Both the position numbers and the translations under genes were made by a program. Below are positions 231 to 57,420 of a stretch of 64,000 nt of DNA, piece by piece. Location: NCBI GenBank assembly GCA_913047795.1, contig CAJWTS010000006.1:19363-83362 (forward strand), read 5' to 3'. The notes under the pieces were generated by a model. That model was not told the origin of the DNA and did no database searches. It worked only from the letters and a program-made list of their open reading frames with translations. Position 1 is the first letter of the stretch. Each line of letters starts with the position of its first letter. Source of the DNA: an uncultured Verrucomicrobiota bacterium (GTDB lineage Bacteria; Verrucomicrobiota; Kiritimatiellia; CAJWTS01).

Positions 231-2249
231 ATGGAAGCCGCAGATCTTTTCTTTTACGCATGGGTCGTCTTTCGGTCTCTCTTCATTTTCCTCATAATTT
301 TCTTCATCGTCAGTGGTCTGGACGATCTGTTTCAGGACATCGTCTATTACTTGCGATGGATATTCAGGGCCATTTTTCGTCGCAAGCTCATCACGCCGGT
401 CACGCGCGAGCAGCTTGATGCCGTTCCGGAGAAGGCCGTCGCGATCATGGTCCCCGCCTGGGATGAGTCGGCGGTCATCGGACCGATGCTACTCAATACC
501 TGCAGCACACTGGACTACAAGAATTTCGTCGTTTTTGTCGGCACCTATCCTAACGATGAGGCAACGCGGGTTGAAGTCGAAAAAATTCGCGACATCTATC
601 CGAATATCGAAGTTGCCATTACGCCGTCCGACGGCCCGACCAATAAAGCCGACTGTCTGAACTGGGTCTACCAGGGGCTGCTTATTTACGAAATGGAACA
701 CGGGGTGCATTTCGATATTTTCTTGATGCACGATTCCGAGGACGTTATCCATCCGCTCTCGATCAAGTATTACAACTACCTGATCCCACGCCTCGACTTC
801 ATTCAGCTCCCGGTTTACCCGCTGGAGGCCAAGTGGACGGACCTGGTGATAGGCGTCTACATGGACGAGTTCGCGGAGAGCCACAGCAAGGATCTGCGCA
901 TTCGGGAGGCCCTGGCTCGTTCCATTCCGTCGGCGGGCGTGGGCACAGCCATGAGTCGCGCCACGATCGAGTTTCTCGCGTCCAGCCACGACAACCAGAT
1001 TTTCGACATCACATCGGTCACGGAAGACTACTTGATGGGACTCAAGCTGGAAGATTTCGAGGGGCGCAAGATATTCCTTCAGCAGGAAATCGAACGACCA
1101 GGCGAAGGGCGCAAGGAGCCGATTGCGACCCGCGCCCTGTTCCCGACGACGTTCGCGTCTGCCGTGCGCCAGAAGTCGCGCTGGATTCTCGGCATCGCGC
1201 TGCAGGGCTGGAGCGTGGGCTGGGGCCGCTCGCTCGGATCGGGCTATTACCTGTTTCGCGATCGCAAGGGAGTGCTCACGAACATCCTGGTTGTCGTGGG
1301 CTACATTGTCTTCTTCTGGTGGGCGATCAGCGGGTTCCTTAACAATCAATTCGCCGGAGTCGACATACCGCCGCTCGTGGAGACCGATGAGATCTGGTGG
1401 AACTTCAGCGGACTCGTACTGGCGCTCTTCGTCTGGCGCATCATCAATCGCGTGGGCTTCACCTGGCACGTCTACGGACCCAAGTTTGCGGTTCTGGCGT
1501 TCCCGCGCATGATTTACGCCAACGTGTTGAACTTCTGCGCGACCTTGGCCGCGATCAACGAATTCGCGAGTGCCAAGCGGGAGGGACGCGTGCCGGAGTG
1601 GAAGAAGACAGAGCATAGCTTCCCGTCCGAAGAACAACTGCGCCGCTACCGCCGGCGCCTGGGTGACATCTTGCTGGACAGGCGCTGGGTAACATCGGCC
1701 CAGTTACAGGAAGCCCTGGTGCGTCAGGAATCGGAGAAGCGCCCCCTGGGCGAACTTCTGGTCGAGATGGGCGTGCTCTGGGAAGAGGACGTAAAACTGG
1801 CGCTTTCTGTACAGGAAAATCGTCAGCGCGTGGAGATCGACCCCTACGCCACGCCCGGGGAACTCCTGAAGCGGGTGCCCCAGCACCTGGCGGAGAAGCA
1901 CAAGGTGTTTCCGCTGGCCTACAGCGGCGATCGAATCGTGTTGGCCACGGCGTCCGAGGACCGTTCCAACCTGGACGAGCTGAAGCGATCCCTCGACGCG
2001 ACGGTCGAGCTGCGCCACTCATCCGAAGCCGAGATCACGTTTGCTATTTCACGCGCCTACACCGACCTGCACCGGCCGGAATCGATGGAGGCCACCCTTG
2101 GCCAGCGCCTTATCGAAAAGGACCTGATCGACGAAAAGACGCTTCGCAAGGCCCTGCGCGAGCAGAAGGCCACGGACAAGCCCTTGGGCGAGGTATTGAT
2201 CAAGATGAAGGCCATCTCGAAGGTGGATCTCAAGGAGGGGTTGCAATAG
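231..2249 (+). CDS. nfrB: Family-2 glycosyltransferase (NfrB-like exopolysaccharide synthase): N-terminal TM segments, cytoplasmic GT-A domain, C-terminal tandem MshEN (T2SSE_N-like) c-di-GMP-binding domains
   Basis: 672-aa ORF. Hydrophobic N-terminus (FFYAWVVFRSLFIFLIIFFIV). GT2-like core (VPAWDESAVIG, MHDSEDVIHP). Four copies of the 24-residue MshEN motif at the C-terminus (RLGDILLDRRWVTSAQLQEALVRQ; PLGELLVEMGVLWEEDVKLALSVQ; TLGQRLIEKDLIDEKTLRKALREQ; PLGEVLIKMKAISKVDLKEGLQ). Confidence 0.8.
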   Translation: MEAADLFFYAWVVFRSLFIFLIIFFIVSGLDDLFQDIVYYLRWIFRAIFRRKLITPVTREQLDAVPEKAVAIMVPAWDESAVIGPMLLNTCSTLDYKNFVVFVGTYPNDEATRVEVEKIRDIYPNIEVAITPSDGPTNKADCLNWVYQGLLIYEMEHGVHFDIFLMHDSEDVIHPLSIKYYNYLIPRLDFIQLPVYPLEAKWTDLVIGVYMDEFAESHSKDLRIREALARSIPSAGVGTAMSRATIEFLASSHDNQIFDITSVTEDYLMGLKLEDFEGRKIFLQQEIERPGEGRKEPIATRALFPTTFASAVRQKSRWILGIALQGWSVGWGRSLGSGYYLFRDRKGVLTNILVVVGYIVFFWWAISGFLNNQFAGVDIPPLVETDEIWWNFSGLVLALFVWRIINRVGFTWHVYGPKFAVLAFPRMIYANVLNFCATLAAINEFASAKREGRVPEWKKTEHSFPSEEQLRRYRRRLGDILLDRRWVTSAQLQEALVRQESEKRPLGELLVEMGVLWEEDVKLALSVQENRQRVEIDPYATPGELLKRVPQHLAEKHKVFPLAYSGDRIVLATASEDRSNLDELKRSLDATVELRHSSEAEITFAISRAYTDLHRPESMEATLGQRLIEKDLIDEKTLRKALREQKATDKPLGEVLIKMKAISKVDLKEGLQ

Positions 2250-2251: not shown

Positions 2252-5200
2252 ATGAATCATCGATCCCGCATAAAGATTTCCTGCATTGCCGCCACGGGTC
2301 TCCTCTTGATTGGTGCCGGCCCGCTCGTGGCGGAAGAACTGTCGCAGGCCATGCCCATCCCGAAGCCGAAGGCGGGGTATGGCTGGTTCAAGAATCAGCG
2401 CGTCAACTACAGCAACCGTCCGTTGTGGAAGAAGGCCAACGCGTTGGTGGCGGAAGGCAAGCACACGCGCGCAGCGCGCGTCTACGATTCGATCCTCGCC
2501 ACGGACCCACACAACAACAAGGCCAAGGTTCACCTGATCCACCTCTACTTTCAGCTCGAAGAGTGGACCAGAGGCATCGACCTTGCCGAGAGCCTGATTG
2601 CGAATTATCCGGATTACCTCGATGCCTATTTCTTCAAGGCCAATTATGCGCTCAGGGCCGGGCGGACCCAATTGGCCGTCCGGACCTTCGAAGACATTCT
2701 CAATCGCGACCCCAGCCGGGCGGTCGCGAATTCCGAGGCGTACAAGGGCCTGGCGCGCGCACGATTTCCGGCGCGGGCGTATCAGAAGCGTCTACCCGAG
2801 GTGCACCGTAGCCTGGCGCGACTGTACTCCCTGAGCGGCGACGCCATGCGCGCGGAGGAACACGCCGCGCGTTGGCGTGACCTGACCGACGAGGGCGAAG
2901 CACATCTTTTTGTCGCCGAGAGCGCACTGAGCCGCAAAGACTGGGACAAGGCGATGGAGGCCCTGACCCTTGCCGGCGAACGCGTCGATACGGAAGAGCT
3001 GAAAGGACGCCTGAGTCTCAAGCGCGGAATGGTCCTCTATAATCTGAAGGATTACGACCGCGCGATGAACGAGCTCATGAACGCCGAAAGCAGAACCGAG
3101 AACGCCGCGGACAAGGCCCTGGCCCAGCGTTACCTCGGCCAAATTGCACTCAAGAAGGGCGCGAACACACGTGCGGCCGATTACCTGTTGTCCGCTACCG
3201 CGATCGCTTTTGACGAAGACGCTGGCGCCGCAGCCCTGCAGGCATTAATGGCGTCCGAGCAATGGGAACGCGGGGTAACCGCGGCCGAGAAGATGCTCAA
3301 GCGGGAAAATCTCTCCGATAACTTCCAGCGCGTGGCGAATGAGAACCTGATGTATTTCTACAAGAATAGCGGCAACGACCGCGGGTATGCCATGGTTGCC
3401 GATAAGCTGCGGCGCGAGAGCCCGGATGATCCGCGCTACCTGCTCGAGAGCGCCGTCGGTGCCGACCGGCTGGGGCGCGATGAGCGCGCGCGCGAATTCT
3501 ACACCACATATCTGGAGGGAAAATTCGACCCGGCCGTTGCCTTCAACCTGTTCTACCTGTTGAAGGAAACCGAGGACCTGGCCGCCGGCGAGGTTGTGCT
3601 CGACCGGGTCGTGGCGACGGAAGGACTAACAGACGACATGCGGCTCGCCGCGAACTACGAACTTGCGCAGGTCTACCGCGCGACCAACCGCACCAATGAC
3701 TACATGCGCATCATGGACCAGGTGGTCCTCGAGAAGGCCGAGGCGGAGCTGCTGTTTGAATATGGCGTGCAGCTCTACGGCAGCGGCTACGATGACCTGG
3801 CCGTCGAGCTATTCAAAAAGGCGTTCGAGCGCCAGACGGAGGCTGCCGACAACTTCAAGACCGCGATTATCATCGCCAAGATCAACATCGGGCACGGCGA
3901 GAACGAGGTCGGCCGCGAATGGTTAGAAAAGGCGCGTGCGTTCGGCGAGGTCGATGACGAATGGCATATCACGATGGCGCGCACGTATTTCAACAACGCC
4001 GAATATGATGCGGTGATCGAGCGCCTGCTGGGCGTGGTCAGCGAGCAGGACACGGGCGGCAACCTGCTGCTCGGGTTTACCTACCACCTGATGCGCATGC
4101 CCGGTCTGTCGCTGTACCACCTGAATCGCGTCGGCTCGCCGGAGAAGCTGGACCCCAGCGAGCGCAATACGCTTTTCTCAAACCGGGCCTACCTCTGGTT
4201 TGACCAGGGCAACTACGTTAACGCGCTGGCGGATGCCGAACGCGCTGTTGCGCCGCACACCGCAGACCAGATGATGCTGGTCCAAATGAAGGCGCTGTTG
4301 CCGCTAAATCGCTACGAAGAGGCGCGCGATATCGGTCTTGAGTTGCTCGACACGATGGACGAGGAGGAGGCGCCTTCCTTCGTCGCCGACCTGATGAAGA
4401 CGCTGGGAACCGTTCATTTCTATCTCAACGATAACGAGAACGCGGTCGAGTTCTTCACGGCGGCACTTAAAGTTGATGACGGGCAGTACGACGTCTACTA
4501 CCTGCGCGCCCTCGCCTATCACCGGCTCGAGGAGTACGAGAAGGCCGAGGAAGATTTCCTCCTGATAGAGACGGAGTCGTCTTTCATCCCGGCCGTGCTC
4601 TGGGGCGACATGGGAATCGTGGAGGGCTATCTTGAGAATTACGATACCGGCACCGTGGTTCTGGCGCGGTCGCTCGAGTACTACCGGTACGATATCGACG
4701 GCATCGAAGAGATGGCATACCAGCACATGAAGAACAACGACAATGCGAAGGCGCAAGATGCGTTCTTCCGGGGCGTGCGCGCGTACGACAATGTTATCCC
4801 GTACATCACCGGGCCGGATCGCGAAATTTATACAGACGACCGCAAGGCCCTGAAGCGCGAGTACGCCAAGCTCGATCGGACGTGGACATTCGAAACCTAT
4901 GTTAACCGGACAGAATTTGGGGACGACGCGGTTGCGGGCTTCGCCGGAACGCTCTCGGCAGTGGACGGCGGCCTGCCCTCCCAGGCAGGTGTCTACCTGG
5001 GGTATCGACCTCCGAAGCTGGGGTTTCGAGATGAGAAGACCCTGGATGGGTTCGCGCGCGTGCTGGCGAATTTCGAGCCCGACTCCTGGGCCCTCGACGA
5101 GGATACCTATCAACTCGGGATTGGATTGGACTGGAAACCCTTCAAGGCGTTCAACTATTCGATGAGCTTCGAGAAGCTCATCGCGATCGGGGATAACGCC

Positions 5201-5638
5201 GAAGATAACTGGCTCTGGCGCAACAAGGGATCGGTTGAGTTTGGCGAGAAGCCGAAGAAGCTCAAGGAAGCCTGGACGAGCGGCCGACTCTATGGCGATA
5301 TCGCGTGGTATCTCGATGATCCCAATCGCGTCGTCTACTACCTCGACGGTCGCCTGGCGCGTACGATCGCACTTTCGGATACCTTCTTGCTGACGATTCC
5401 GCAGGGCAAAGCGGTGTGGCGCTATCAGAACAACGATCCCGACGGTATTGGTTCGTATGTGATAGCTTCGATCGGGTTCGAAGCGCGATTTCTCGAGAAA
5501 GAGAGAGATGCGCTGACCGAACGCTGGTACATGGATCTCTTCGCCCACTATGCCTGGGGTTGGTTCACGGACGAACCGCGGATCAAGGGCGATCGTAACT
5601 TCGAGGGCATCTGGTTCGGTGCCACGTTCCGGAAGTGA
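2252..5638 (+). CDS. nfrA: Outer-membrane exopolysaccharide export protein: signal peptide, long TPR-repeat periplasmic region, C-terminal beta-barrel (NfrA/PgaA/BcsC-like)
   Basis: 1128-aa ORF starting 2 nt after the nfrB stop. N-terminal signal-like segment (SCIAATGLLLIGAGPLVAEE). Hundreds of residues with Ala/Leu/Tyr-rich TPR periodicity. Last ~300 aa have alternating hydrophobic/aromatic beta-strand pattern ending ...GIWFGATFRK. Confidence 0.7.
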   Translation: MNHRSRIKISCIAATGLLLIGAGPLVAEELSQAMPIPKPKAGYGWFKNQRVNYSNRPLWKKANALVAEGKHTRAARVYDSILATDPHNNKAKVHLIHLYFQLEEWTRGIDLAESLIANYPDYLDAYFFKANYALRAGRTQLAVRTFEDILNRDPSRAVANSEAYKGLARARFPARAYQKRLPEVHRSLARLYSLSGDAMRAEEHAARWRDLTDEGEAHLFVAESALSRKDWDKAMEALTLAGERVDTEELKGRLSLKRGMVLYNLKDYDRAMNELMNAESRTENAADKALAQRYLGQIALKKGANTRAADYLLSATAIAFDEDAGAAALQALMASEQWERGVTAAEKMLKRENLSDNFQRVANENLMYFYKNSGNDRGYAMVADKLRRESPDDPRYLLESAVGADRLGRDERAREFYTTYLEGKFDPAVAFNLFYLLKETEDLAAGEVVLDRVVATEGLTDDMRLAANYELAQVYRATNRTNDYMRIMDQVVLEKAEAELLFEYGVQLYGSGYDDLAVELFKKAFERQTEAADNFKTAIIIAKINIGHGENEVGREWLEKARAFGEVDDEWHITMARTYFNNAEYDAVIERLLGVVSEQDTGGNLLLGFTYHLMRMPGLSLYHLNRVGSPEKLDPSERNTLFSNRAYLWFDQGNYVNALADAERAVAPHTADQMMLVQMKALLPLNRYEEARDIGLELLDTMDEEEAPSFVADLMKTLGTVHFYLNDNENAVEFFTAALKVDDGQYDVYYLRALAYHRLEEYEKAEEDFLLIETESSFIPAVLWGDMGIVEGYLENYDTGTVVLARSLEYYRYDIDGIEEMAYQHMKNNDNAKAQDAFFRGVRAYDNVIPYITGPDREIYTDDRKALKREYAKLDRTWTFETYVNRTEFGDDAVAGFAGTLSAVDGGLPSQAGVYLGYRPPKLGFRDEKTLDGFARVLANFEPDSWALDEDTYQLGIGLDWKPFKAFNYSMSFEKLIAIGDNAEDNWLWRNKGSVEFGEKPKKLKEAWTSGRLYGDIAWYLDDPNRVVYYLDGRLARTIALSDTFLLTIPQGKAVWRYQNNDPDGIGSYVIASIGFEARFLEKERDALTERWYMDLFAHYAWGWFTDEPRIKGDRNFEGIWFGATFRK

Positions 5639-6837
5639 CCATGGCGCGAGCACGGAGAACAAAGGACATGCGAAAAGCTTACGGCCTGATATTGATGATG
5701 GCAGCCTGCCTGTGGTCGCTCGACGGCCTGGCCGGAGATGCGACGTTTGTTCAGCTGAGTCGCGCCGCGGCAAAACGGTCGGCGGATGATTGGCGGGCGG
5801 AGTTTGAAAAGATGACGGCCATAGGGGTCGATACGATCATTCTGCAGTGGACGGCGGAGACAGACATTGCGTATTTCGTTCTTGTCGAGGACGCGGAGGC
5901 GCCGGAAGACCCCGTTGCCGCAGGGGTGCGCGCGCGGGAAGAAGACCTGGCCCCGACGAATCCGAGCGAGACCATGAAGGAGCCGGTCGTTCTGCCTGAC
6001 ATTTCCGCCGAGGAAACCTACCCCGAACAGTACCCGGTCCTGGAGCGGATTTTCGAGGCCGCCGAAGCAAGTGGCGTCTCGGTCGTGCTGGGCCTGCACC
6101 ACGATCCGAATTACTGGACCGAGATCACCGCACGCATGCGTGTATTGAAAGACTACTTTTATGTGCGCACCGCCCATAACGAACGGCTGCAATTGGAGTT
6201 GCTGAAGAAGTTCAGCCATCGCACGAGCTGGATCGGCTACTACGTGCCGGATGAGATCGATGATTTAACATGGCGCACGGATGCCAAGCTCGATCTCGTG
6301 GCGGGTTACGTGGCTCTCCTCAGCGAGCGCTTGCGCGCCAACGACGCCGACCGCGGCATCACGATCAGTAGCTTTTTCCGGCTGCGCACCGCCCCCGATG
6401 TCTATGCCCGTAACATCAAGCGCATTCTTTCCGGCAGCGACGTGACCGAGCTGTTGGTACAGGACGGCATGGGCGACGGCAACCCGTGGAAATACGCGAA
6501 ACACTATGTGCCGATTTACTATGAAACGCTTGCGGAGGTCCTGAAGGAAGAAGCCTACGATCGTAAAGTCGTGATTGAACTTTTTGAACGCGTCACGGAT
6601 GTGGGCGAACCCTTTCGTGCCGTTTCGGCGCCGGTCGATCGCGTCAGCCGGCAGATCGAAATGGCCGCCCCGCATTTCGCGGGGAAAGTCTACTTCACGT
6701 ACTCGAACTACATGCATCCGGCTCGGGGCGAACATGCCGCTGAGCTTTACGATGCAATGAAGTCCGGATCACGAAAAAGAGCCGCCGCAGTCGCCGCACC
6801 CGCCGCACCCGCCGCACCCGCACCGGAAGACAAGTAA
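5635..6837 (+). CDS. Secreted/periplasmic glycoside-hydrolase-like (TIM-barrel-like, YbcH/DUF4434-type?) protein with C-terminal Pro-Ala repeat tail
   Basis: GTG start overlaps the nfrA stop (GTGA). Signal peptide (MRKAYGLILMMAACLWSLDGLAG). ORF ends in AAAVAAPAAPAAPAPEDK. Third position in the nfr-like operon. Product assignment is tentative. Confidence 0.5.
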   Translation: MTMARARRTKDMRKAYGLILMMAACLWSLDGLAGDATFVQLSRAAAKRSADDWRAEFEKMTAIGVDTIILQWTAETDIAYFVLVEDAEAPEDPVAAGVRAREEDLAPTNPSETMKEPVVLPDISAEETYPEQYPVLERIFEAAEASGVSVVLGLHHDPNYWTEITARMRVLKDYFYVRTAHNERLQLELLKKFSHRTSWIGYYVPDEIDDLTWRTDAKLDLVAGYVALLSERLRANDADRGITISSFFRLRTAPDVYARNIKRILSGSDVTELLVQDGMGDGNPWKYAKHYVPIYYETLAEVLKEEAYDRKVVIELFERVTDVGEPFRAVSAPVDRVSRQIEMAAPHFAGKVYFTYSNYMHPARGEHAAELYDAMKSGSRKRAAAVAAPAAPAAPAPEDK

Positions 6838-6866
6838 CCGGCGCGTTCCGTGCCGCGCGGCTTTCC

Positions 6867-9500
6867 TTGAGTTCACATATGCCCGGGCGTATAATCCCGC
6901 CTCTCGTGAAAGAGACCGAAATAGATGTTTTCCCCATGGAGCCGGCCGATCCCGTGCCCGCCGACAGGATTCGCGTGCTCGTTATCGATGACGAGGAGCC
7001 GATTCGGAGGCTTGCGCGTCGCATACTGATCCAGGCAGGGTGTACCGTGGAGGCCGCCGTCGATGGCCGTGACGGGTTGCAATTGCTGCTCGGGAGCGAC
7101 TTCGATGTTGCTGTTGTTGACCTCAAGATGAGCCGCATGGACGGTATCGCGTTTCTGGTCGAGGCGCTTCGGATCTGTCCCTGGATCGGCGTCGTCATCG
7201 TAACCGGATTGAGCCAGCAGGTCGACGTGGACCGCGCTCGAGAACTCGGCGTAAAACACATTCTCAAGAAACCGTTCAGGGTCGACGAATTCCGCGGCAT
7301 GGTTTTCGAGCAGGCCGAGGAAAAGCGTCGCAAGTTAACGACCTCGTCGGACATCTCCCTTGGACGTATTCAGAACGCGCTCGGGCTGTTTCGCCAACTG
7401 ACCTGCGCGGCGACGGAATCGGACACGCTGCTTGATGCCCTGCAGAGCCTGAGCACGGGCCTGCAGATACTGCCGTCGGCCGTCGTCGCGATCCTGAGCC
7501 TGGAAGAGGACCCGATCCTGGTGATCAGCGTGCTAAAGCCCGTGTCGCGGGAATTTCTACAGACCTTCGAGGATGAGATCCGGACGCGTTATCAACGATT
7601 CAGCGGCCAGACCCTCTCGAGCGAACTGCGGATCGAGGTGCAGGGCGTGGCCGAGAGCGAGGACGGCGCCGCCGCGGTTGGAAACTCGTTCAGCATTCCA
7701 ATTATCACCGGTGGCGACATCAGTGGCCTGCTCGCGCATGCGTCGATCGATAAAGACGCGTATTCCGAGACGGACATGTTGTTCATGTACCACGCTGCCA
7801 ACCTGCTCTCCACGGTGCTGCTGACCTTCCGCCGGATGAAACAGCTCGCGGTGCGCGATGCGCTCACGGGCCTGTATAACCAGCGCGGCCTGCGGGAGCA
7901 GATGGAGAGCGTGTGGCAGATGGTGAAACGCTATCACTACCGGGTCAGCATCGCCGTGTTGGACATCGACCAATTCAAGGCGGTCAACGATACCTATGGA
8001 CACCCGGTCGGCGACGAAGTGTTGCTCGAGTTGGGCGACCTGTTGCGCGTCAGTGTCCGCGCGTCGGACATCATCGGCCGTTACGGCGGTGACGAATTCG
8101 TCATCTTGTTCCCCAATGCCTCGCCGGAAGACCTCGCCGCGTTTTCGGAACGATTCATGGAAACGCTGCGCGGTCATATCTTCTGCGACGGCACGCACGA
8201 CCTGAAGCTGACCGTATCAATGGGCATGTCCAGCAGCTTTGGCCAGGACTGGCTCTTGCTCTCGAGCAACGAGATCCTGACCCAAGCCGATCAGGCGCTC
8301 TATACCGCGAAAGATAACGGACGGGATCAGGTCTGCATGTGGTCGGCGGGCGGTTTCGCTGCGACCGAGACCATTGAGACGCTTGCGCCCGTGGCGCGCG
8401 AGACCGCCAAGCATGAAATCCAGGGTGCCGGGCGCCTGCTTGTCGTAGATGACGAGCAGGTCGTGCTCGACTACTTACGGACGGTTTTAAAAACCGAGGG
8501 CTACGAGGTCGTCGCCGTGCAATCCGCGGAAGAAGCCCGAGAGGCGTTGCGCTCTGCGCCCGGAGAAATCGGCATCGTCGTAACCGACATCACGCTTAAA
8601 GAGGAAAGCGGCTTGGATCTGCTCAAAGACCTTCGTTCCCTTGACGACATGCTTGTCGCGATTGTCATGACCGGGAACGTCACGCTCGATAACGCGGTCA
8701 GTAGTTTACGTCACGGTGCGTACGACTTCATCGAAAAGCCGATCGAAGTCGCCCCATTGCTTGCCGTTCTAAATCGCGCCCGCGAATACCGGCGCTTGCG
8801 CCTGCAGAACCGCCGCTACCAGCTGCGCCTCGAAGACATGGTGCGAGAAAAGAGCAAAGAGCTCTCGATTGCGCTCGAACAAGCTAAGCAGTCGTACAAC
8901 TTCACGCTCGAGGCACTGGTCAACATGATCGACGCGCGCGAGCAGAACACGGGTCGGCATAGCGTTAATGTCCGTGAGCTCTCCCTCATTCTCGGACGCG
9001 AACTGGACCTGGAGGAACGCGACATGCGGATCCTGAGCCAGGGCGCGCTCCTGCACGACATCGGAAAAATTGCGATTCCCGACAGCATCCTTCTCAAGGA
9101 AGGACCCCTCACGAGCGATGAGTGGGTTGTCATGCGCTCCCACGCCGAGAAGGGGTACGAGATCGTATCGCGATCGCCGTTTCTGAAGGAATCGGCCGAG
9201 ATCGTGCACTCCCACCAGGAAAAATATGATGGAACGGGCTATCCCCGCGGCCTCGCCGGCGATGATATATGTATGGGTGCCCGCATATTCGCGGTTGTCG
9301 ATGCCTACGATGCGATGCGCACCGACCGCCCCTACCGGAAGGCCATGCGCACAAGTGACGCCATAAACGAGCTGCGGACATATTCCGGAACGCAATTTGA
9401 TCCGACTGTCGTCGAAGCCGCGCTACGCTGCATCGACCAGATGGAGCGTGTCCGCGCCCTGACGACCGATATAGAAGCCAACGAAGTCGCCGCACGTTGA
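6867..9500 (+). CDS. Composite c-di-GMP enzyme: receiver (REC) - GAF-like - GGDEF diguanylate cyclase (intact GGDEF plus RxxD I-site) - second REC - HD-GYP phosphodiesterase
   Basis: 877 aa. REC1 (VLVIDDEEPIRR...VVDLKMSRMDG). GGDEF motif RYGGDEF at 8085-8099 preceded by RASD (I-site spacing). REC2 (LLVVDDEQVVLD...VTDITLKEESG). HD at 9054-9059 and GYP at 9237-9245 (HDIGK...HQEKYDGTGYPRGL). Confidence 0.85.
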   Translation: MSSHMPGRIIPPLVKETEIDVFPMEPADPVPADRIRVLVIDDEEPIRRLARRILIQAGCTVEAAVDGRDGLQLLLGSDFDVAVVDLKMSRMDGIAFLVEALRICPWIGVVIVTGLSQQVDVDRARELGVKHILKKPFRVDEFRGMVFEQAEEKRRKLTTSSDISLGRIQNALGLFRQLTCAATESDTLLDALQSLSTGLQILPSAVVAILSLEEDPILVISVLKPVSREFLQTFEDEIRTRYQRFSGQTLSSELRIEVQGVAESEDGAAAVGNSFSIPIITGGDISGLLAHASIDKDAYSETDMLFMYHAANLLSTVLLTFRRMKQLAVRDALTGLYNQRGLREQMESVWQMVKRYHYRVSIAVLDIDQFKAVNDTYGHPVGDEVLLELGDLLRVSVRASDIIGRYGGDEFVILFPNASPEDLAAFSERFMETLRGHIFCDGTHDLKLTVSMGMSSSFGQDWLLLSSNEILTQADQALYTAKDNGRDQVCMWSAGGFAATETIETLAPVARETAKHEIQGAGRLLVVDDEQVVLDYLRTVLKTEGYEVVAVQSAEEAREALRSAPGEIGIVVTDITLKEESGLDLLKDLRSLDDMLVAIVMTGNVTLDNAVSSLRHGAYDFIEKPIEVAPLLAVLNRAREYRRLRLQNRRYQLRLEDMVREKSKELSIALEQAKQSYNFTLEALVNMIDAREQNTGRHSVNVRELSLILGRELDLEERDMRILSQGALLHDIGKIAIPDSILLKEGPLTSDEWVVMRSHAEKGYEIVSRSPFLKESAEIVHSHQEKYDGTGYPRGLAGDDICMGARIFAVVDAYDAMRTDRPYRKAMRTSDAINELRTYSGTQFDPTVVEAALRCIDQMERVRALTTDIEANEVAAR

Positions 9501-9529: not shown

Positions 9530-10636
9530 ATGTCGAGGTGCCGAATTTTATGTGTAGTCGGAACGCGACCGGAAGCCATCAAGATGGCGCCGGTCATCCG
9601 CGAGATTCAAAAGGACCCCGATACGTTCGATCTCACGATCAAGTCAACGGGTCAGCATCGTGAAATGCTGGTGCAGGCACTGAGTACCTTTTCGATCACC
9701 CCGAATGTCGACCTCGACATCATGGCCGGCGGCCAAACGCTGGCCTACGTGACCAGCGAAGTGCTGACCGCCATGCAGAGCTATCTGCAAAACAACGAGA
9801 CGGACGTGGTCATGGTACAGGGCGATACAACGACCACCATGGCCGCCGCAATGGCGAGTTTTTATAACGGCGTACGCGTGGCGCACGTCGAGGCCGGATT
9901 GCGTACCTGGAACGGCTGGGAACCCTTCCCCGAGGAGATGAACCGGCGCGTGACGAGCCTCGTGGGCCACTATCACTTTGCGCCGACGGACCTGTCCGCG
10001 CAGAACCTGCTCCGCGAGGGAGTCGATCCGGCACGCGTGCATGTGACTGGGAATCCGGTCGTCGATGCTCTGATGTATGTGCTGGAGCACACCGAAGCAC
10101 CGCCCACGCCGATCGCGGAGGGGCGGCCGTATATCCTGATGACCTGCCACCGGCGCGAAAGCTTTGGTGAGCCGATCCGGGAGATCTTTGGCGCGATTCG
10201 AGCGTTTGCGCAGACACATCCCGAGCTTTCGATATGGTATCCGGTGCATCCCAACCCGAAGGCCAAGGAACCGGCACACGAGATCCTTGGCGACTTGGAG
10301 AACGTCGTTTTGAGCGAGCCACTAGATTACGTGGGTTTCGTGCATGCCATGAAGGGCGCTTACCTTGTTGTATCGGATTCCGGCGGGGTCCAGGAAGAGG
10401 CACCGTCGCTTGGAAAACCGGTCCTGGTCTTGCGCGATGTCACGGAACGGCCCGAAGCCGTGGAAGCCGGGACCTGTCGGCTTGTCGGGCCGCACCGAGA
10501 CCGCATACTCGAGTCCCTGGAACGGCTCCTGTCGGACAAGGCAGAATATCAGCGAATGGCGGGAATCAGCAATCCCTTCGGGGATGGCGCCGCCGCGGAG
10601 CGTATCGTATCCCTCATCCGCGACGACTACGCCTGA
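9530..10636 (+). CDS. wecB: UDP-N-acetylglucosamine 2-epimerase (non-hydrolysing), makes UDP-ManNAc
   Basis: MSRCRILCVVGTRPEAIKMAPV..., DIMAGGQTL, HVEAGLRT, classic Epimerase_2 signatures. ATG at 9530 with AAGGG upstream. 29 nt after the previous gene. Confidence 0.9.
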   Translation: MSRCRILCVVGTRPEAIKMAPVIREIQKDPDTFDLTIKSTGQHREMLVQALSTFSITPNVDLDIMAGGQTLAYVTSEVLTAMQSYLQNNETDVVMVQGDTTTTMAAAMASFYNGVRVAHVEAGLRTWNGWEPFPEEMNRRVTSLVGHYHFAPTDLSAQNLLREGVDPARVHVTGNPVVDALMYVLEHTEAPPTPIAEGRPYILMTCHRRESFGEPIREIFGAIRAFAQTHPELSIWYPVHPNPKAKEPAHEILGDLENVVLSEPLDYVGFVHAMKGAYLVVSDSGGVQEEAPSLGKPVLVLRDVTERPEAVEAGTCRLVGPHRDRILESLERLLSDKAEYQRMAGISNPFGDGAAAERIVSLIRDDYA

Positions 10637-10779: not shown

Positions 10780-11604
10780 ATGAACGAGGATAACGACAAG
10801 AAAGAAACAGCACCGGAAGCGGTACCGGAAGCGGTACCGGAAACGGCGTTGGACACCGCGGTCACCGAGACACAAGAGCAGGCGGTACCCCAGGCGACGT
10901 TCGCGAGATACGGCAAGTGGGCCGTGTTTGCCGTCTGCGCCGTGGGAATTCCCGTTGTCGGAATGTTCATGTACACCGCCTCGCAGCGCGCGAAGGTGCG
11001 GCGTGCGGCCGAATTGGTGGGCGCGGCCCGGAACGTGGTGCAGCTACAGAAGGTCCTGGACCAATACCCCGACGCACCCGCGGCGGCACATGCCAAGCTC
11101 GCGATGGCCAAGGCGTATTTCGACCAGAGCAATTATGCCGGTGCGCTCAAGATCTACCAGTCCTTCGAGCAGGAATATCCGGAGCATTACTTTGTTCTTG
11201 CGGCGCGCCTGGGTATTCACACCTGTGGCGAGGCGCTCGGCACCACGCTCTACCGACAGGGCCAGAGCATGGCGGCGCGCGAGAAGCTTGAGGCGGCACG
11301 GAACGGATACCGCAGTTTCGTTGACGCGAATCCGGATCATTTTCTGGTCGCGCAGGCGATCTTCGGCGAAGCAAGCTGTCACCAGCAACTGGGCCGACTG
11401 CAGGACGCGCGGATTCTATATGAGGATTTCATCACGACCTCGACGAACAGCCCCTGGGTACAGCTTGCGGAACGACAACTCGCGGCCGTCGAACGCGATA
11501 TCGAGCGGACCGAGCGGGGAGAACCGGCGCGCGAGACGGTGATTACGCCTCTCGGCATCCCCGCGGAGTCGGCATGGCAACTCCCCGAAACATTCGGGCC
11601 GTAG
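10780..11604 (+). CDS. Membrane-anchored TPR-like protein (YfgM/YbgF-like architecture), function unknown
   Basis: Acidic N-terminus with repeated PEAV, one TM (WAVFAVCAVGIPVVGMFMY), then helical repeat region rich in A/L/Y. Confidence 0.45.
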   Translation: MNEDNDKKETAPEAVPEAVPETALDTAVTETQEQAVPQATFARYGKWAVFAVCAVGIPVVGMFMYTASQRAKVRRAAELVGAARNVVQLQKVLDQYPDAPAAAHAKLAMAKAYFDQSNYAGALKIYQSFEQEYPEHYFVLAARLGIHTCGEALGTTLYRQGQSMAAREKLEAARNGYRSFVDANPDHFLVAQAIFGEASCHQQLGRLQDARILYEDFITTSTNSPWVQLAERQLAAVERDIERTERGEPARETVITPLGIPAESAWQLPETFGP

Positions 11605-14353: not shown

Positions 14354-15994
<1,641 letters not shown>

Positions 15995-16024
15995 CTATAT
16001 CTCCTTTTTAGTAACCGAAAAGGG

Positions 16025-16312
16025 TTATTCGACGATGCCGAGGATGTCATCCTCGCGCATAATCTGGTATTCCTTGTCGTCAATTTTGACTTCCGTCCCA
16101 CCGTATTTCGGCATCAGGATGGCGTCGCCTTTTTTCACGTTGAACGGGATAACCTTGCCGTCATCATCACGCTTGCCCGTTCCAAGTGCGATGACCTTTC
16201 CCTGTTGGGGCTTTTCCTTGGCTGTGTCAGGAATGATTATTCCGCCCTTCTCAACCTCACCATTTTCCTGAGGCTGAACAAGAATTCGATCACCCAGTGG
16301 CTTGATCTTCAT
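16025..16312 (-). CDS. groES: Co-chaperonin GroES (Hsp10)
   Basis: 95 aa. [14 protein letters not shown]...GKVIALGTG. Confidence 0.95.
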
Positions 16313-16366
16313 CTTTTCTCCCTCCTTCGTTTTGTTTTAGCGGCCGCAGCCGCCACGTTGTTACTG

Positions 16367-18292
16367 TTACTTCTTGTCGTCGACCATTTCGAAGTCGGCA
16401 TCGATGACATCCTCGTCCTTACCCTGCTCCTCCCCCGCTTCTTGGTCGGGTCCGGGCGCGTCGCCGTCCGCGGGGCTGTCTTCGGCGGCCTCGGGATCGT
16501 CGGTCTGGGTATAGAGATCGGCCGTTACGGCCTGCATCTCCGTGTTGAGAGTTTCGATGGCCGCCTTCATCTGGTCCGTGTCGCCGGACTCGATGGCCTT
16601 CTTTAAGCCGTCAATTGCGCCTTCGACCGTGCTCTTTTTCTCGGCATCGATCTTCTCGCCGTTGTCGTTCATGAGCTTCTCGGTCTGGTACACCAGATTC
16701 TCCGCGAGGTTGCGCGTCTCGACCTTATCGCGCTCCTCCTTGTCCTGCTCGGCGTTCTTCTCGGCATCGGAGACCATGGAATTGATCTCATCTTCGGACA
16801 GGCCGCTTGCGGCGGTGATCGTGATCTTCTGCTCCTTGCCGGTGCCGAGATCCTTGGCGGAGACGTTCAGAATGCCGTTGGCGTCGATATCAAAGCTGAC
16901 CTCAACCTGGGGCGTGCCACGCACCGCTGGCGGGATGCCATCGAGATGAAAGCGTCCGATCGACTTGCCGTCCTTGGCCATCTTGCGCTCGCCCTGCAGC
17001 ACGTGAATCTCAACCGTGGGCTGGTTGTCGGCCGCGGTGCTGAATATCTCGCTCTTCTTCGTGGGAATCGTCGTGTTGCGTTCGATCAGCGGCGTGAAGA
17101 CTCCACCCAGGGTCTCGATGCCCAGCGTCAACGGCGTCACGTCGAGCAGGAGCACGTCTTTTACATCGCCCTGTAGGATGCCGCCCTGAATCGACGCGCC
17201 CGTGGCAACAACCTCGTCCGGGTTCATGCCCTTGTGCGGCTCCTTGCCAAAAAGCTCCTGGCACATCGCCTGCACCTTCGGCATGCGGGTCATGCCGCCC
17301 ACCAGGATCGACTCGTCAATACCGTCCAGATCCGCATCCTTCAGACAGGACCGTACCGGGTCCGCCGTCCGCTCAATGAGGCTATCGACCAGCTGCTCGA
17401 GGGTCGCACGCGAAAGCGTCACGTTCAAATGTTGCGGCCCGGATTCGTCGGCGGTGATGAAGGGCAGGTTGATGTCGGTCTCTTGCGTGCTCGAAAGCTC
17501 GCATTTTGCCTTCTCCGCCGACTCCTTCAGGCGTTGCAGGGCCATCGTATCCTGCGAGAGGTCGATGCCCTTGTCCTTCTTGAACTCCGCGACGAGCCAG
17601 TTGATGACGGCCTCGTCGAAATCGTCTCCTCCAAGGTGCGTATCGCCGTTGGTCGCCTTGACTTCGAAAACGCCGTCGCCGATGTCCAGCACGGACACGT
17701 CAAAGGTTCCGCCGCCGAGATCGTAAACGGCGATCTTCTCGTCCTTCTTCTTATCCAGGCCGTATGCCAGCGCGGCCGCGGTCGGTTCGTTGATGATGCG
17801 CAGCAGATTGAGCCCTGCGATGCGCCCGGCATCCTTGGTCGCCTGGCGCTGGCTGTCGTTGAAATACGCTGGGACCGTCACCACGGCATCCGTAATAGGC
17901 TCTCCCAGGTAGGCCTCGGCGTCCACCTTCAGCTTCTGCAGAATCATCGAAGAGATTTCTTGTGGCGTGTAGGTCTTGTCGGCGACCTGGATGTTGACGT
18001 CGCCGTTGTCGGCCTTGACAACATCGTAAGGCACCAGCGAGATCTCGTGGGCCACCTCGTCGTACTTGCGGCCCATGAATCGCTTGATCGAAAAAATCGT
18101 GTTCTCGGGGTTGGTGACAGCCTGCCGCTTGGCAGCCTGCCCCACAAGGCGCTCGCCGCTCTTGGTGAAGGCGACGACCGAAGGTGTCGTACGCCCGCCT
18201 TCGGCATTGGGGATGACCGTCGGCTCACCACCTTCGAGTACAGCCATACAGGAGTTTGTCGTGCCAAGGTCTATTCCAATTACTTTTCCCAT
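16367..18292 (-). CDS. dnaK: Molecular chaperone DnaK (Hsp70)
   Basis: 641 aa. [23 protein letters not shown], acidic C-terminus. Sits directly upstream of groES on the same strand. Confidence 0.95.
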
Positions 18293-18814
18293 CGGTCCGC
18301 CCTTTCGTTACTCGGGTAATCGCCAAACATAGTTCGACCGCGTTGACGCATCGCTTAAAGCAGCATGTATGCCACCGCAACCCCACAACACCGCCGGATC
18401 GCCGGACAGTCGCAATTCGGGCTGTTTCTAACACGAAAACGTGCAAACATTCTGCAAGGCGTCGCGCAACGCAATTGCCGAATGCGTGTCCATTTGTCCC
18501 ACATCCGGACATGTTGCCGGGTTTCGTGACGATCTGTCTCGCCACGGTGTGACACGTCTTGATCTGCATCGTCCACGCGTCGCAACCCCGCGTTACGACA
18601 TGTAGTAGGTTGTCCCCCTGAGACACACCACAGTGATCGAATCCGATAGGCGGTAACAGCGGTGTCCGCATCGCGTGCTCGTCATCACGGTTCGGGACGC
18701 TGGAGGCCCTGTCCTCCGTGGCTACGCCCCGCCGCAGACAGAAAGGGCGAAGGAGGATCGAAAACCCGCAATTCCGCTTGCCATGCGATACACTTTTGTA
18801 ACAATGCTGGCTCC

Positions 18815-20395
18815 ATGGCATCAGCTCCCACCACAACCGCGCGTGCGGCGCAGGACGAACTCGAAGCGCTGTATCACATCTCGCAGACGACCACGGCGCA
18901 TCACGACGATGTGAGCGCCCTTCTGATGGAGGTGCTCAAAATTCTAGAAACCGAGCGCGGCATGGGGCACGGCACGCTGACCCTGCGCCGGCCCGACACC
19001 GACGTGTTCGTCATCGAGGCGTCGCGCGGTCTCTCCAGTGCTGAACGCGAACGCGGTCAGTACCGGCTCGGCGAGGGCGTCACCGGTCGCGTTGCAAAGA
19101 GCCGCATCCCGGCACTCGTGCCCGATGTCAGCAAGGACGACGAATTCCTGAACTTGACCGGCTCGCGCAAGAAAATGAAGACCGCATTCCTCTGTGTGCC
19201 CATCACCTACCGTCGCCGCGTGATTGGAACCCTGAGTGCTGATCGACCGACGGCGACAAACGACGTCCTCGATCGCGAACTGAACTTCCTGAAACTGGTT
19301 GCCGGCCTGCTGGCCGAAGCCGTGGCTGCCTCGCGCGAGCAGCTGCAGGAGCGCGAAAGCCTGCTGGCCGAGAACACTCTGCTGCGTCAGCAACTCGGCC
19401 AGAGCTACCATCCCAATAACATGGTGGGCACGAGCCGCGTGATCCGATCCGTCTACGGCCAGGTGCGCCAGGTTGCAGACAGCACGGCGACGGTCCTGGT
19501 GCGCGGTGAGTCCGGCACCGGCAAGGAGCTCGTGGCCAAGGCGATTCACTATTCAAGCGCGCGCAAGACCAAGCCCTTCATCGGCGTCAATTGCGCGGCC
19601 CTGCCGGAAAACCTGATCGAAAGTGAACTCTTTGGGCACGAGAAGGGCGCGTTCACGGGTGCCGAGAAGCAGCGGCACGGGCGCTTTGAACTCGCTGACG
19701 GCGGAACCCTATTCCTGGATGAAATCGGTGATATCTCGCCGGCCGTTCAGGTCCGGCTGCTGCGCGTCCTGCAGGAACGCTGCTTCGAGCGCGTTGGGGG
19801 TTCACGGACCATCAAGATCGACGTGCGCATCATCGCCGCGACGAGCCGGGACCTGGAGCAGGCCATAGAGGATGACCGGTTTCGCGGCGACCTCTACTAC
19901 CGGCTCAATGTGTTCCCGGTGCATCTGCCGCCCTTGCGCGAGCGCCGCTCGGATATCCTGCTCCTGGCCGAACACTTTCTGAAGCAATACAGCGAATCCT
20001 ATGCGAAGGACATCCGCCGCATCTCCACCCCGGCGATCAACATGATGATGGAGTATCATTGGCCCGGCAACGTGCGCGAACTCGAGAATTGCATCGAACG
20101 TGCGGTCTTGAGCAGTGCTGACAACGTGATCCACGCGTATTCGCTGCCACCCTCGTTGCAGACGAGCGAAGAAACAGACACCGCGCTGTTGCCGTCCGAC
20201 GGCGCCAGCCTCAAGACGCTGGTCGATTCCTATGAACGCGAGGTTATCGTGGATGGGCTGAAGCACTGCGGGGGAAACGCCGCCGCCACCGCTCGTCACC
20301 TCAAGACCACCAAGCGTATCTTGAACTACAAAATCAAGCACATGAACATCAAGGCGGAGCGCTACCGTGGCCCGGCGGACGAAAATGGATCGTAA
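18815..20395 (+). CDS. Sigma-54-dependent transcriptional activator (enhancer-binding protein), GAF - AAA+ - HTH (NifA/FhlA-like)
   Basis: [15 protein letters not shown] (Walker A), EKGAFTGA (GAFTGA sigma-54 contact motif), C-terminal HTH. Start moved to the internal ATG at 18815. Confidence 0.85.
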
Positions 20396-21839
20396 CGGCG
20401 CATGTCGGAGACTGGCCGCGCTGGCGATCGTCGCCGCATCGCTGGCCGCACCTTGCCGCGCGCACGACGATCTGACCCCGGAAGAGGTGCTGGACCTCAC
20501 GGGCAGGGCGCTCGCTTCCATCGCGCGCCGCGCTATTCCCTGCGTGGTGCACGTCTGGGCCGACAATCGCCCCCCGTCACCGGACGCGGAGAAGGAAGAA
20601 GGCCTGACGCCCGAGATGCAGGAACGGATGCGACAGCTATGGATGCACCCGGACTTACGACGCTTGCATGGTCCCTTTCCGTTTCGCCGTCGCCGTGAAG
20701 GCACCGGGCTGATCGTCAGCGAGGACGGATACATTGTCTCCAATCACCACGTCGTGGGCGACGCCGATTCGATCAAGGTGCGCCTGCATGATGGACGTGA
20801 GTTCGATGCGACGGTCGTGGGCACGGACGCAAAATCGGAAATAGCGGTGATTAAGATCACGGCTGAAAAGCTCCCCGTCTTGCCCGACGGCGATTCCACA
20901 GAACTCGACGTGGGGGAATGGGTCATGGCCATCGGGAATCCATTTGGGCTGAGCGAGACCGTGACCGTCGGGGTGGTCAGCGCCAAGGGCCGCAGCGGTT
21001 TGGCCATCGCCGAATACGAGGATTTCATTCAGACGGACGCGGCGATCAATCCCGGCAATTCGGGCGGGCCGCTGATCGACAAGCAGGGCAAGGTCATCGG
21101 CATCTGTACGGCGATCGTGAGCGGCACGGGTAGCTACATGGGCGTGGGCCTCGCCGTTCCAATGAGTATGGCGCGAGGCGTGATTGATCAGTTGATTCAA
21201 AGTGGGCACGTCACGCGCGGATTTCTCGGCGTCTACATTCAGAACGTGAATCATGAAATGGCGGAATTTTTCGGCCTCAAGGCGGCCGGTGGCATCATCA
21301 TCGCCGAGGTGCTCAAGGGTTCCGCGGCCGACCGCGCGGGCCTGAACGCAGACGATATTGTCCTGGAGCTCGACGGCCTGGCCGTGCGTAATACCAGCGC
21401 CTTCCGTAACGCTGTCGCGGCCCGTCAGCCCGGCACGCCGATCAACCTTCTGGTCTTTCGCGAGGGGCAGAAACGCAAGGTCGCCGTCACGGCCGGTGAA
21501 CACCCGGATCAGGTTGCGGCGGAAGCCCCGGCCTCGGGGCCGGATATCGATGGCCTGGGGCTTAGCGTGGAAGCCCTTCCGAAGGAACTTTCCGCCGAGA
21601 TGGACATGGACGCGGGCGTCATTGTGACCGGTGTCGCGGAAGGCAGCTTGTCCTCCGCGCAGGGGATCGAAGTCGGCAACGTTATCGCCAGCGTGAATCG
21701 TAAGCGCGTGAAGGACCCGCAGGAATTCGCGCGATTGGTTGAAGAAGCCTCCGGCCGCGGCAAGGTACTGTTGCTGGTCAAAACCGGCAATAGCACGCGT
21801 TACGTGCTCATCACGCGTTCCCCAGTAACTGCGCCTTAA
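20385..21839 (+). CDS. htrA: Periplasmic serine endoprotease DegP/HtrA family with two PDZ domains
   Basis: Signal peptide ([17 protein letters not shown]). Catalytic triad context ([13 protein letters not shown]). Two PDZ-like segments. Start overlaps the EBP stop by 11 nt. Confidence 0.85.
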
Positions 21840-41815: not shown

Positions 41816-41985
41816 TGCTCGACGCTATCTGCCCCGCCAGCGCCCGCCGCCGGAATTTTCATAGCCGCTGCCCCGGCCATTGGCCTGCGAAGGGGAGCGC
41901 GATGGTCTGCTTCCGACATGGCAATCGAATTCCCTGCTCCAGGGAACAATCGGATCCGGGAACGGCTTCAGGGAACAGGCCATGA
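41766..41985 (+). pseudogene. 3'-terminal remnant of a PhyH-family gene (HPLRQSLFRAVHCENN...), no upstream body
   Basis: In-frame translation matches the C-terminus of paralog A, then diverges. The upstream sequence is the parC 3' end. Confidence 0.5.
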
Positions 41986-42158
41986 AATTTGACTGCCGGG
42001 CCCCTTTGGGCTGATACTTCCGCTTCGCTGTCAGGTTCAACCTGGAGGCACCGCAAGACCATGAAGAAGACTGCGCTACTCTTACCCGTCGCCCTGTTGC
42101 TGACCTGTGCCGCGCAGGGGACGCCGAACTCGCCCCGCCGTCCACGCCGAGGGCCACG

Positions 42159-43298: not shown

Positions 43299-43552
43299 TG
43301 CAGATAGCGGCCGCAACCGATCCGCGCAGATGCACATTATCTCTGCGTCAAACAGCGCCGCTCACAGCCACCTGACCGTGGGCTAGCCTCTGTCCGCCGC
43401 CAACGGCCGCAGTGGTCTCGCGCACAGTTCGTCCATCTCGTCGAGACCCGCCCAGCCCAGCACCCGCCTGAGATAGATGCAGAAGCCCGGCTCCGCGCCG
43501 TCGCCCGGTCTCGCGCGACGTGCGGTACGTCACGCGGGAAACGCGAACGTTC

Positions 43553-57417: not shown

Positions 57418-57420
57418 GCC

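Follow-up and report, generated by a model that had tools for sequence, protein, structure and literature searches.

A probable composite response regulator with two receivers, GGDEF, and HD-GYP domains in an Nfr-type exopolysaccharide operon of an uncultured Kiritimatiellia bacterium

In the Nfr system of Escherichia coli, the synthase NfrB binds cyclic di-GMP (c-di-GMP) through an MshEN domain, is locally activated by the GGDEF enzyme DgcJ, and needs WecB, which supplies UDP-N-acetylmannosamine (UDP-ManNAc); NfrA is the outer-membrane component, and YbcH is an accessory periplasmic protein (Junkermeier & Hengge 2021, PMC8669469). Linkage of nfr clusters to wecB is common, as is, in pseudomonads, linkage to a GGDEF gene in fourth place of the operon (PMC8669469). 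We analyzed a 64,000-nucleotide stretch of DNA (referred to as the window) from an uncultured Verrucomicrobiota bacterium of the Kiritimatiellia lineage CAJWTS01 (assembly GCA_913047795.1, contig CAJWTS010000006.1, positions 19,363 to 83,362 of the forward strand), in which a gene encoding a REC-GAF-GGDEF-REC-HD-GYP protein lies in a similar exopolysaccharide (EPS) operon. We favor, with moderate confidence, the view that this protein is a composite response regulator, made of a DgcR/WspR-like REC-GAF-GGDEF half and an RpfG-like REC-HD-GYP half, which would serve as a dedicated c-di-GMP source and sink for the neighboring MshEN synthase.

The locus shares with the E. coli Nfr system the order of the GT2-MshEN synthase, TPR/NfrA_C, and DUF4434 genes, together with WecB and a GGDEF enzyme that is probably dedicated (PMC8669469). 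Unlike DgcJ, which is encoded elsewhere, this enzyme is encoded in the operon and adds an HD-GYP domain and two receivers. The host belongs to the PVC group, and the synthase, in a full-length match to the NCBIfam NfrB model, scores 506 bits, below the equivalog cutoff of 1170, and has an extra C-terminal c-di-GMP-type motif. The N-terminal half of the regulator resembles cyclases of the DgcR/WspR/PleD type in its phospho-acceptor receiver, helical linker, and GGDEF domain with an RxxD I-site, but a GAF domain is inserted between receiver and GGDEF, and the second pseudo-receiver of PleD is missing. The C-terminal half resembles the RpfG family in its receiver, coiled coil, and full-length HD-GYP domain with substrate-binding residues (10.1101/2021.11.05.467447); it differs in having HQE for HHE and N-T-G for E/D-T-G and in being fused behind a complete cyclase.

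Synthase and hydrolase activities on one chain, with a balance that is shifted by phosphotransfer from a kinase, are known from the REC-GGDEF-EAL proteins Lpl0329 of Legionella and RavR of Xanthomonas: in Lpl0329, phosphorylation lowers the diguanylate cyclase (DGC) activity, and in RavR, RavA brings about a change from DGC to phosphodiesterase (PDE) activity (as summarized in 10.1101/604611). Each of these has a single receiver and an EAL domain, whereas the protein described here has two receivers, one per catalytic domain, and an HD-GYP domain. Proteins with GGDEF and HD-GYP on one chain were already noted when HD-GYP was first described, in 1999, and composites such as MASE9-HD-GYP-GAF-GGDEF and REC-PAS-PocR-GGDEF-HD-GYP are alike in this respect but differ in domain order and inputs (10.1101/2021.11.05.467447). 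In the literature that we searched, there was no experimental characterization of both activities in any GGDEF + HD-GYP fusion and nothing on c-di-GMP in Kiritimatiellota. All component families are already known, as are GGDEF/HD-GYP fusions (1999) and GGDEF genes in nfr operons (2021). The two-receiver layout, the conserved family that it forms in Kiritimatiellia-type bacteria, the alternate pairing with MshEN and PilZ synthases, and the HQE variant are undescribed as far as our searches reach.

The open reading frame (ORF) at 6867..9500 (+) has 877 codons counted from its first TTG, and all residue numbers given here follow this maximal ORF. The true start is probably ATG 6936, which gives a gene at 6936..9500 (+) and a protein of 854 aa. 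This start is favored because a 98% identical relative (P0001) is 854 aa long, corresponding to ATG 6936, and because the length of the N-terminal leader fits: a median of 22 residues (interquartile range, 18 to 26) precede the acidic pair of the first receiver in homologs, compared with 17 from ATG 6936 and 40 from the TTG. An earlier note on this DNA, made from the sequence alone, had described one 877-aa polypeptide; such an ORF exists, and the protein itself is probably somewhat shorter. The Pfam matches are Response_reg in two stretches (E 8e-43), GGDEF (aa 328-488; E 5.5e-40), and HD_5/HD (aa 683-848; E 6e-43), each far over its curated cutoff, and the NCBIfam domain calls agree; GAF_3 alone stays below threshold. 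The five-domain architecture proposed in the earlier note is borne out by Pfam, by family-profile searches of the PDB, and by fold matches of the predicted structure, and its coordinates for the GGDEF, RASD, HD, and GYP motifs are exact. The equivalog cutoffs of NCBIfam are missed for PleD (208 versus 474 bits), DgcR (192 versus 500), and the NosR family (259 versus 400); as judged by these models, the protein resembles all three but is a member of none.

A search of 5.8 billion proteins returned ∼78 clusters of full-length relatives with 38 to 98% identity and ≥92% coverage. The named relatives are proteins from metagenome-assembled genomes (MAGs) of Kiritimatiellia or Verrucomicrobia/Verrucomicrobiota and are annotated just as "diguanylate cyclase." A scan of species-representative genomes with the family alignment, in which generic patterns crowded the results, found one true relative, in a Victivallales MAG (L010), and otherwise mostly unrelated REC-HD-GYP proteins. 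A metagenome scan with the single protein gave fragments only (L094-L098), with matches dominated by the receiver peptide YDFIEKPI. Residue conservation was counted in a family alignment of 79 sequences.

Both receivers have the canonical phospho-acceptor site and are predicted to be phosphorylatable. REC1 (6969..7316, +; aa 35-150) has the acidic pair D41/D42, the phospho-acceptor D85 (nucleotides 7119-7121), T113, and K135, and acidic pair, D85, Thr, and Lys are in register with archaeal CheY (6er7) and RssB (3eod). In REC2 (8439..8771, +; aa 525-635), the corresponding residues are D528/D529, D574 (8586-8588), T602, and K624, in register with the receivers 3jte and 3hdv. Active-site residues of both receivers are retained in 76 to 79 of the 79 family members (D85 and K135 in 76 each, D574 in 78, and K624 in all). 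As the earlier note had it, each catalytic domain stands behind its own receiver, and these alignments to solved receivers show the conserved Asp in both. The idea that one of them is a pseudo-receiver, like the second REC of PleD, was rejected, since all active-site residues are present in both.

The GGDEF domain (7848..8330, +; aa 328-488) also has a complete active site. It scores 137 bits with PF00990 (cutoff, 23.8) and 156 bits with TIGR00254 (cutoff, 37.4), and its nearest solved match is DgcR (6zxm; E 3.5e-35), with which it has all active-site blocks in common: RDxLTGLYN, DIDxFKxxNDxxGHxxGD, RxxD-x5-GG[D/E]EF, and AKxxGR. The active-site loop G407-G-D-E-F411 lies at 8085-8099, and the I-site R398-A-S-D401 lies at 8058-8069, five residues upstream. 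GG[D/E]E is found in 79/79 family sequences, and the R and the D of RxxD are each found in 78/79; in a 46-sequence subset, D366, K371, N374, D383, and K482 are invariant, and R486 is ≥90% conserved. In PleD, the Mg-binding D327 is the equivalent of D366, the guanine-binding N335 and D344 are those of N374 and D383, and the phosphate-binding K442 and R446 are those of K482 and R486. Alignment to DgcR and conservation in the family thus uphold an intact GGDEF with an RxxD I-site, and we predict a competent cyclase. A degenerate GGDEF domain that acts as a sensor, as in some GGDEF-EAL proteins, was rejected because the active site is complete and invariant. Hypr-GGDEF enzymes, which are cGAMP synthases, carry Ser at the guanine-specificity position; this reading was also rejected, since D383 is an Asp.

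Between REC1 and GGDEF, a GAF core is predicted at 7428..7766 (+; aa ∼188-300). The predicted model has a long helix on either side of it (aa 149-183 and 301-329), and the second helix continues into the GGDEF domain. On the single sequence, Pfam GAF_3 remains below threshold (E 0.036; 14.9 bits versus a cutoff of 27), and many homologs carry precomputed GAF, GAF_2, or GAF_3 matches. A profile built from the REC1-to-GGDEF segment of 20 family members (A2) matched the GAF domain of PtsP (3ci6) in the PDB at E 5e-11, followed by 3trc and miRFP670nano. The AlphaFold2 model of the segment has a pLDDT of 84.9, and its top PDB matches in Foldseek are all GAF domains, with TM values of about 0.5 to 0.6. 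The GAF call, though the weakest element of the architecture for a single sequence, is therefore borne out by the family profile and the predicted fold.

The HD-GYP domain (8913..9410, +; aa 683-848) is full length, with 147 bits for HD_5 (cutoff, 27.2), and has the HD motif, H730-D731 (9054-9059), which provides metal ligands, and the GYP motif, G791-Y-P793 (9237-9245); H698, H759, D812, R821, and R824 are among its functional residues. We aligned it residue by residue to PmGH (4mcw; the chain index is offset by +6), V-cGAP3 (5z7c), and PA4781 (4r8z). PmGH has eight metal ligands: E185, H189, H221, D222, H250, H276, H277, and D305 (PMC4159591). At the HHE motif, the protein reads SHQEKYDGTGYP and PmGH reads EHHERWDGTGYP; HHE is replaced by HQE (H783-Q784-E785, 9213-9221), which places Q784 at the H277 position, and N694 (8946-8948) occupies the E185 position. 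Two of the eight PmGH ligands are thus replaced, and six of the seven ligands that active HD-GYPs share are present (H698, H730, D731, H759, H783, and D812), the H277 position being the seventh. The statement in the earlier note that all catalytic signatures are intact therefore holds for GGDEF, the I-site, HD, and GYP and fails at HHE and at the E185 ligand. A loss of HD-GYP metal ligands, which it had named as a sign of a degenerate enzyme, is seen in part, at Q784 and N694, but conservation in the family argues against degeneration.

The two replaced ligands differ in their weight: in PmGH, H277A essentially abolishes activity, E185A only reduces it, and E185 is the sole ligand that differs between the two HD-GYP subgroups (PMC4159591). 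In TM0186, two metals are related to the formation of pGpG, and a third is related to the formation of GMP (review PMC13492106). The E/D-T-G signature of trinuclear sites reads N694-T-G here, and position 694 is variable in the family (S in 26 sequences, E in 14, N in 11, A in 10, and others). Asn in place of E185 is common in the subgroup presumed to be binuclear. Because the E185 ligand is replaced by Asn, the metal center is predicted to be binuclear, and the product would probably be mainly pGpG.

Position 784 is occupied by H in 51 and by Q in 28 of the 79 sequences and by nothing else, and its state changes at least seven times on a neighbor-joining tree. Around it, H783, E785, G789, G791, and Y792 are invariant, and D788 and P793 are nearly so; H698, H730, D731, H759, H783, E785, D812, and R821 are present in 79/79 sequences, and GYP is present in 78/79. 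The substrate-contacting residues are kept as well (K734 of the HDxGK motif, Y792, and R821 in 79/79 and R/K at R824 in 70/79), including the equivalents of PmGH R314 and K317. In Q-type as well as H-type members, HD-GYP is better conserved than any other domain of the protein (mean pairwise identities of 0.62 and 0.60, respectively). Since only H or Q is found at 784, the other ligands are invariant, and the domain is the best conserved, decay is unlikely, and we infer that the Gln of HQE, whether as a ligand or in the second shell, is tolerated in a site that still functions.

A rival explanation, to which we give limited credence, is that the protein is a cyclase only, in which the impaired HQE HD-GYP domain serves as a c-di-GMP/pGpG sensor or as an interaction or "trigger" module and REC2 gates binding instead of hydrolysis. 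Q784 and N694 do lie where mutations abolish (H277A) or reduce (E185A) the activity of PmGH, no assayed HQE enzyme turned up in the literature searched, and a sensor or "trigger" role has been proposed for some RpfG-family and degenerate HD-GYP proteins. HnoD and ECA3548, in which HHE is altered to QLE and ANE, respectively, are inactive regulators; however, they have lost more, since HD is also changed, to SE in HnoD and to HT in ECA3548 (Galperin & Chou, 10.1101/2021.11.05.467447), and the inactive examples additionally lost the HD motif or both histidines. Here a single His is changed, and to a residue that is able to ligate metal; the remaining ligands and substrate contacts are invariant or nearly so, and the domain is conserved equally in Q-type and H-type members. 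Xanthomonas RpfG proteins are without the key His at the position of PmGH H189 (H189 in PMC4159591), and Lysobacter RpfG, which is very similar to Xanthomonas RpfG, hydrolyzes c-di-GMP robustly (10.1101/2021.11.05.467447). We rejected Xanthomonas RpfG as a direct precedent for the missing His, because it is the equivalents of H189 and E185, not that of H277, that RpfG is without.

It is far less likely still that the HD-GYP half acts on another nucleotide, 3′3′-cyclic GMP-AMP (3′3′-cGAMP) or pGpG, so that the protein would not make and break the same messenger. PA4781 prefers pGpG. It is the third PDB match of the region (E 2.7e-29) and is likewise without the third-metal Glu at the aligned position, and the best match is the cGAMP-specific V-cGAP3 (E 2.1e-38), statistically equal to PmGH (E 2e-38). 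However, the contacts of PmGH with c-di-GMP are kept (the Y of GYP and the R314/K317 equivalents), the neighboring receptor is an MshEN c-di-GMP domain, and the fused GGDEF domain, with Asp (D383) at its guanine-specificity position, is expected to make c-di-GMP and not cGAMP.

The HQE variant also occurs beyond the family. In other fetched HD-GYP loci, it accounts for 17 of 81 motif matches (L011-L027, L041, and L049), in a sample that is biased towards relatives of the query; the carriers are REC-HD-GYP-type proteins from MAGs of Acidobacteriota, Myxococcaceae, Syntrophomonadaceae, and Eubacteriales (Bacillota).

The composite regulator that we favor draws its proposed role from its neighbors. 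Its gene is the fourth of five co-oriented, closely packed genes, with gaps between the maximal ORFs of 2, -4, 29, and -4 nucleotides. The first gene (231..2249, +) encodes an NfrB-like processive GT2 glycosyltransferase with a C-terminal MshEN domain (Pfam Glyco_tranf_2_3 plus MshEN) and with TED and QxxRW motifs; it scores 578 bits with NF012033 (cutoff, 537) and 98.8 bits with the c-di-GMP-motif model NF053729 (cutoff, 38), and a regular expression for the tandem 24-residue MshEN c-di-GMP motif matches at aa 476-499 and 505-528 (window positions 1656-1814). The second gene (2252..5638, +) encodes an NfrA-like outer-membrane TPR protein (Pfam TPR families plus NfrA_C, E 1.3e-10). The third (5635..6837, +) encodes a DUF4434 protein, the YbcH-type periplasmic component (DUF4434, E 6e-36; PRK09936, 95.6 bits), whose start is uncertain, with gene callers giving 387 to 389 aa in 98% identical relatives. 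The fifth (9530..10636, +) encodes WecB, the nonhydrolyzing UDP-GlcNAc 2-epimerase that makes UDP-ManNAc (Epimerase_2, E 5e-114; TIGR00236, 455 bits, cutoff 210). Judged by these matches, the operon is an Nfr-type synthase-dependent EPS system with a synthase that is NfrB-like and not an E. coli-type equivalog, and the setting described in the earlier note, in an EPS operon next to an MshEN receptor, stands. The maximal wecB ORF, from 9497, overlaps the stop codon of the regulator gene; we rejected this overlap as proof of translational coupling, because it concerns maximal ORFs only and the likely wecB start is ATG 9530.

Two further observations concern the ends of this operon. The synthase has another 24-residue motif at aa 622-645, followed by the motif-like PLGEVLIKMKAISKVDLKEGLQ at its extreme C terminus (window positions 2094-2246); the NCBIfam c-di-GMP-motif model reports two stretches on the synthase, and the extra C-terminal motif may be a second c-di-GMP site. 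Behind wecB lies a gene for a TPR/YfiO(BamD)-like 274-aa protein (10780-11604), and a similar gene follows the cluster in the loci of P0001 and P0004; this protein may be part of the EPS cluster or have a role in assembly of the outer membrane.

To see how far this arrangement extends, we used direct look-ups of 12 family members, which together with the window make up the 13 loci on which the context statistics rest. The full order of GT2-MshEN, TPR-NfrA_C, DUF4434, and regulator genes is found for P0001, P0013, P0019, and P0038 (98 to 45% identity) and is thus kept in separate contigs down to 45 to 48% protein identity. P0004 (59% identity) has TPR proteins, DUF4434, and the regulator on an 18.7-kb contig without a GT2-MshEN or NfrA_C match, and in P0009 only the GT2-MshEN synthase is present, directly upstream of the regulator. 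In P0015 and P0032, the regulator lies directly upstream of a PilZ-bearing GT2 synthase, a ∼640-aa protein, and a large TPR protein. In total, 9/13 loci are beside a c-di-GMP-gated polysaccharide synthase or, in the case of the incomplete P0004 contig, beside other Nfr-type cluster genes, and the neighboring synthases have two unrelated types of receptor, MshEN and PilZ. Since the remaining four looked-up members (P0059, P0063, P0016, and P0062) are found among genes unrelated to EPS, the family is not obligatorily EPS linked.

These four members also suit another explanation, that the protein is a general regulator of cellular c-di-GMP and came to lie in the EPS cluster by drift of gene order, not through a dedicated partnership with the NfrB-like synthase. 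The diffusible nature of c-di-GMP and a possible promoter of its own at 6867-6895 would fit such a role. We nevertheless think it decidedly unlikely: the four-gene order has held to 45 to 48% identity in separate contigs, two members that are not beside an MshEN synthase adjoin a PilZ synthase, which is what brings the EPS-linked loci to 9/13, GGDEF-nfr linkage is found independently in pseudomonads, and NfrB is under local control (PMC8669469).

The context further appears to follow the state of position 784. An Nfr-type context is seen in 7/8 Q-type loci (including the window and one incomplete contig) and in 0/5 H-type loci (Fisher p 0.005; with the window and its near-twin left out, 0.015; the loci are few, and shared ancestry is ignored). 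This link is a lead. It gives some support to a stronger variant of our reading, which we hold to be doubtful, namely, that the regulator is docked on the NfrB-like synthase as a push-pull controller complete in itself and that HQE marks a distinct, still active HD-GYP subclass that coevolved with MshEN-type (Nfr) systems, for example, one with an altered metal preference or a slower "leak" hydrolase. Among the H-type members are P0032 and P0015 (L001 12709-20936; L007 12684-17849), where the ∼640-aa protein has no Pfam match; these loci have the look of an EPS system of Kiritimatiellia that is gated by PilZ, either Bcs-like or of another kind.

Returning to the dedicated source and sink, we regard it as the simplest role, given that the gene stays within the operon of the synthase. 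The regulator would then provide and remove c-di-GMP locally for the MshEN receptor of the adjoining synthase, as DgcJ does for NfrB on the source side, and the NfrB-like synthase would polymerize a ManNAc-containing glycan from UDP-ManNAc made by WecB; a ManNAc polymer under c-di-GMP control is what the E. coli system suggests (PMC8669469). Phosphorylation of D85 would reorganize the dimer through the helical linkers and GAF so that two GGDEF domains meet productively, in keeping with DgcR, in which phosphorylation of the receiver activates the cyclase by a switch of coiled-coil register (PMC8041772). The RxxD I-site would allow product inhibition of the cyclase, and the GAF domain, inserted in the transmission path, could contribute a small-molecule input. 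Phosphorylation of D574 would control HD-GYP, since PDE activity in the RpfG family depends on phosphorylation of the receiver (10.1101/2021.11.05.467447). We infer both enzyme activities from the conserved sites described above, and the regulator may also be physically coupled to the synthase. A phospho-toggle of synthesis versus hydrolysis, as put forward in the earlier note, is plausible by analogy with DgcR, RpfG-family regulators, Lpl0329, and RavR, although the sequence itself fixes neither the sign nor the independence of the two switches.

Several observations weigh against this reading. Q784 sits where PmGH has H277, whose Ala mutant kills activity, N694 stands in for the E185 metal ligand (PMC4159591), and in the literature searched there was neither an assayed HD-GYP with HQE nor any mention of HQE. 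The 4/12 looked-up members that are not beside EPS genes point away from a fixed partnership. A sigma-70-like match, TTGAGT-17-TATAAT (6867..6895, +; 10/12), lies in the 98-nucleotide gap between the DUF4434 stop codon and ATG 6936, and a weak hairpin (6841-6858) stands before it; this possible internal promoter, together with the hairpin, could uncouple transcription of the regulator (and wecB) from nfrB/nfrA, but it is only a lead, as the count of sigma-70-like sites in the region is not above that of shuffled controls. Finally, no cognate kinase was found within the 64-kb window by Pfam, six-frame REC hidden Markov model (HMM), or H-box searches. None of the ∼40 large ORFs from across the window that were scanned with Pfam encodes a HisKA kinase, and the sole HATPase_c match belongs to a GyrB/ParE-type topoisomerase; the six-frame HMM search found no receiver besides REC1 and REC2, and the six-frame search for the H-box motif found none. 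On these negative results, we rejected the idea that the window hides a kinase, an Hpt protein, or a single-domain receiver, and the description of the protein as an orphan regulator holds for the 64 kb.

In local c-di-GMP signaling, one effector is served by a cyclase or hydrolase of its own although the messenger is shared and diffusible; the concept has so far been drawn mainly from a small number of proteobacterial examples, among them DgcJ-NfrB. Here, a predicted source, sink, two phospho-inputs, and a receptor-bearing synthase are found in one operon, an arrangement that is seen repeatedly in a little-studied phylum, and members of the same family in sister lineages lie beside a different (PilZ) receptor type. 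Such a compact system could be used to ask whether local control results when one chain holds both source and sink, how control of opposing activities is divided between two receivers, and whether a widespread HQE metal-site variant is active. It extends current concepts to a new architecture and clade and does not change them.

Kinases are encoded near some relatives of the regulator. In the Nfr-linked loci of P0013 and P0038 (L091 12513-22496), two PAS-HisKA kinases and a REC-HisKA hybrid kinase lie ≤10 kb from the regulator, in a block that also encodes a sigma-54 response regulator, a ketoacyl synthase, and a Toluene_X porin and that is absent from the window. A single-domain receiver gene adjoins the cluster in P0013 and P0032. 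The kinases are candidate phospho-donors, and all of these genes are leads only.

Elsewhere in the window, four large ORFs, all on the minus strand, have no Pfam match at E ≤ 1e-5: 34009-36654 (881 aa), 59328-61403 (691 aa), 56227-57843 (538 aa), and 41859-43337 (492 aa); some may be shadow ORFs, given a sequence of 60% GC. A sigma-54 activator with a GAF input in place of a receiver (18662-20395) adjoins a groEL/dnaK/htrA-like stress cluster (14354-21839), and this synteny recurs in the P0004 locus.

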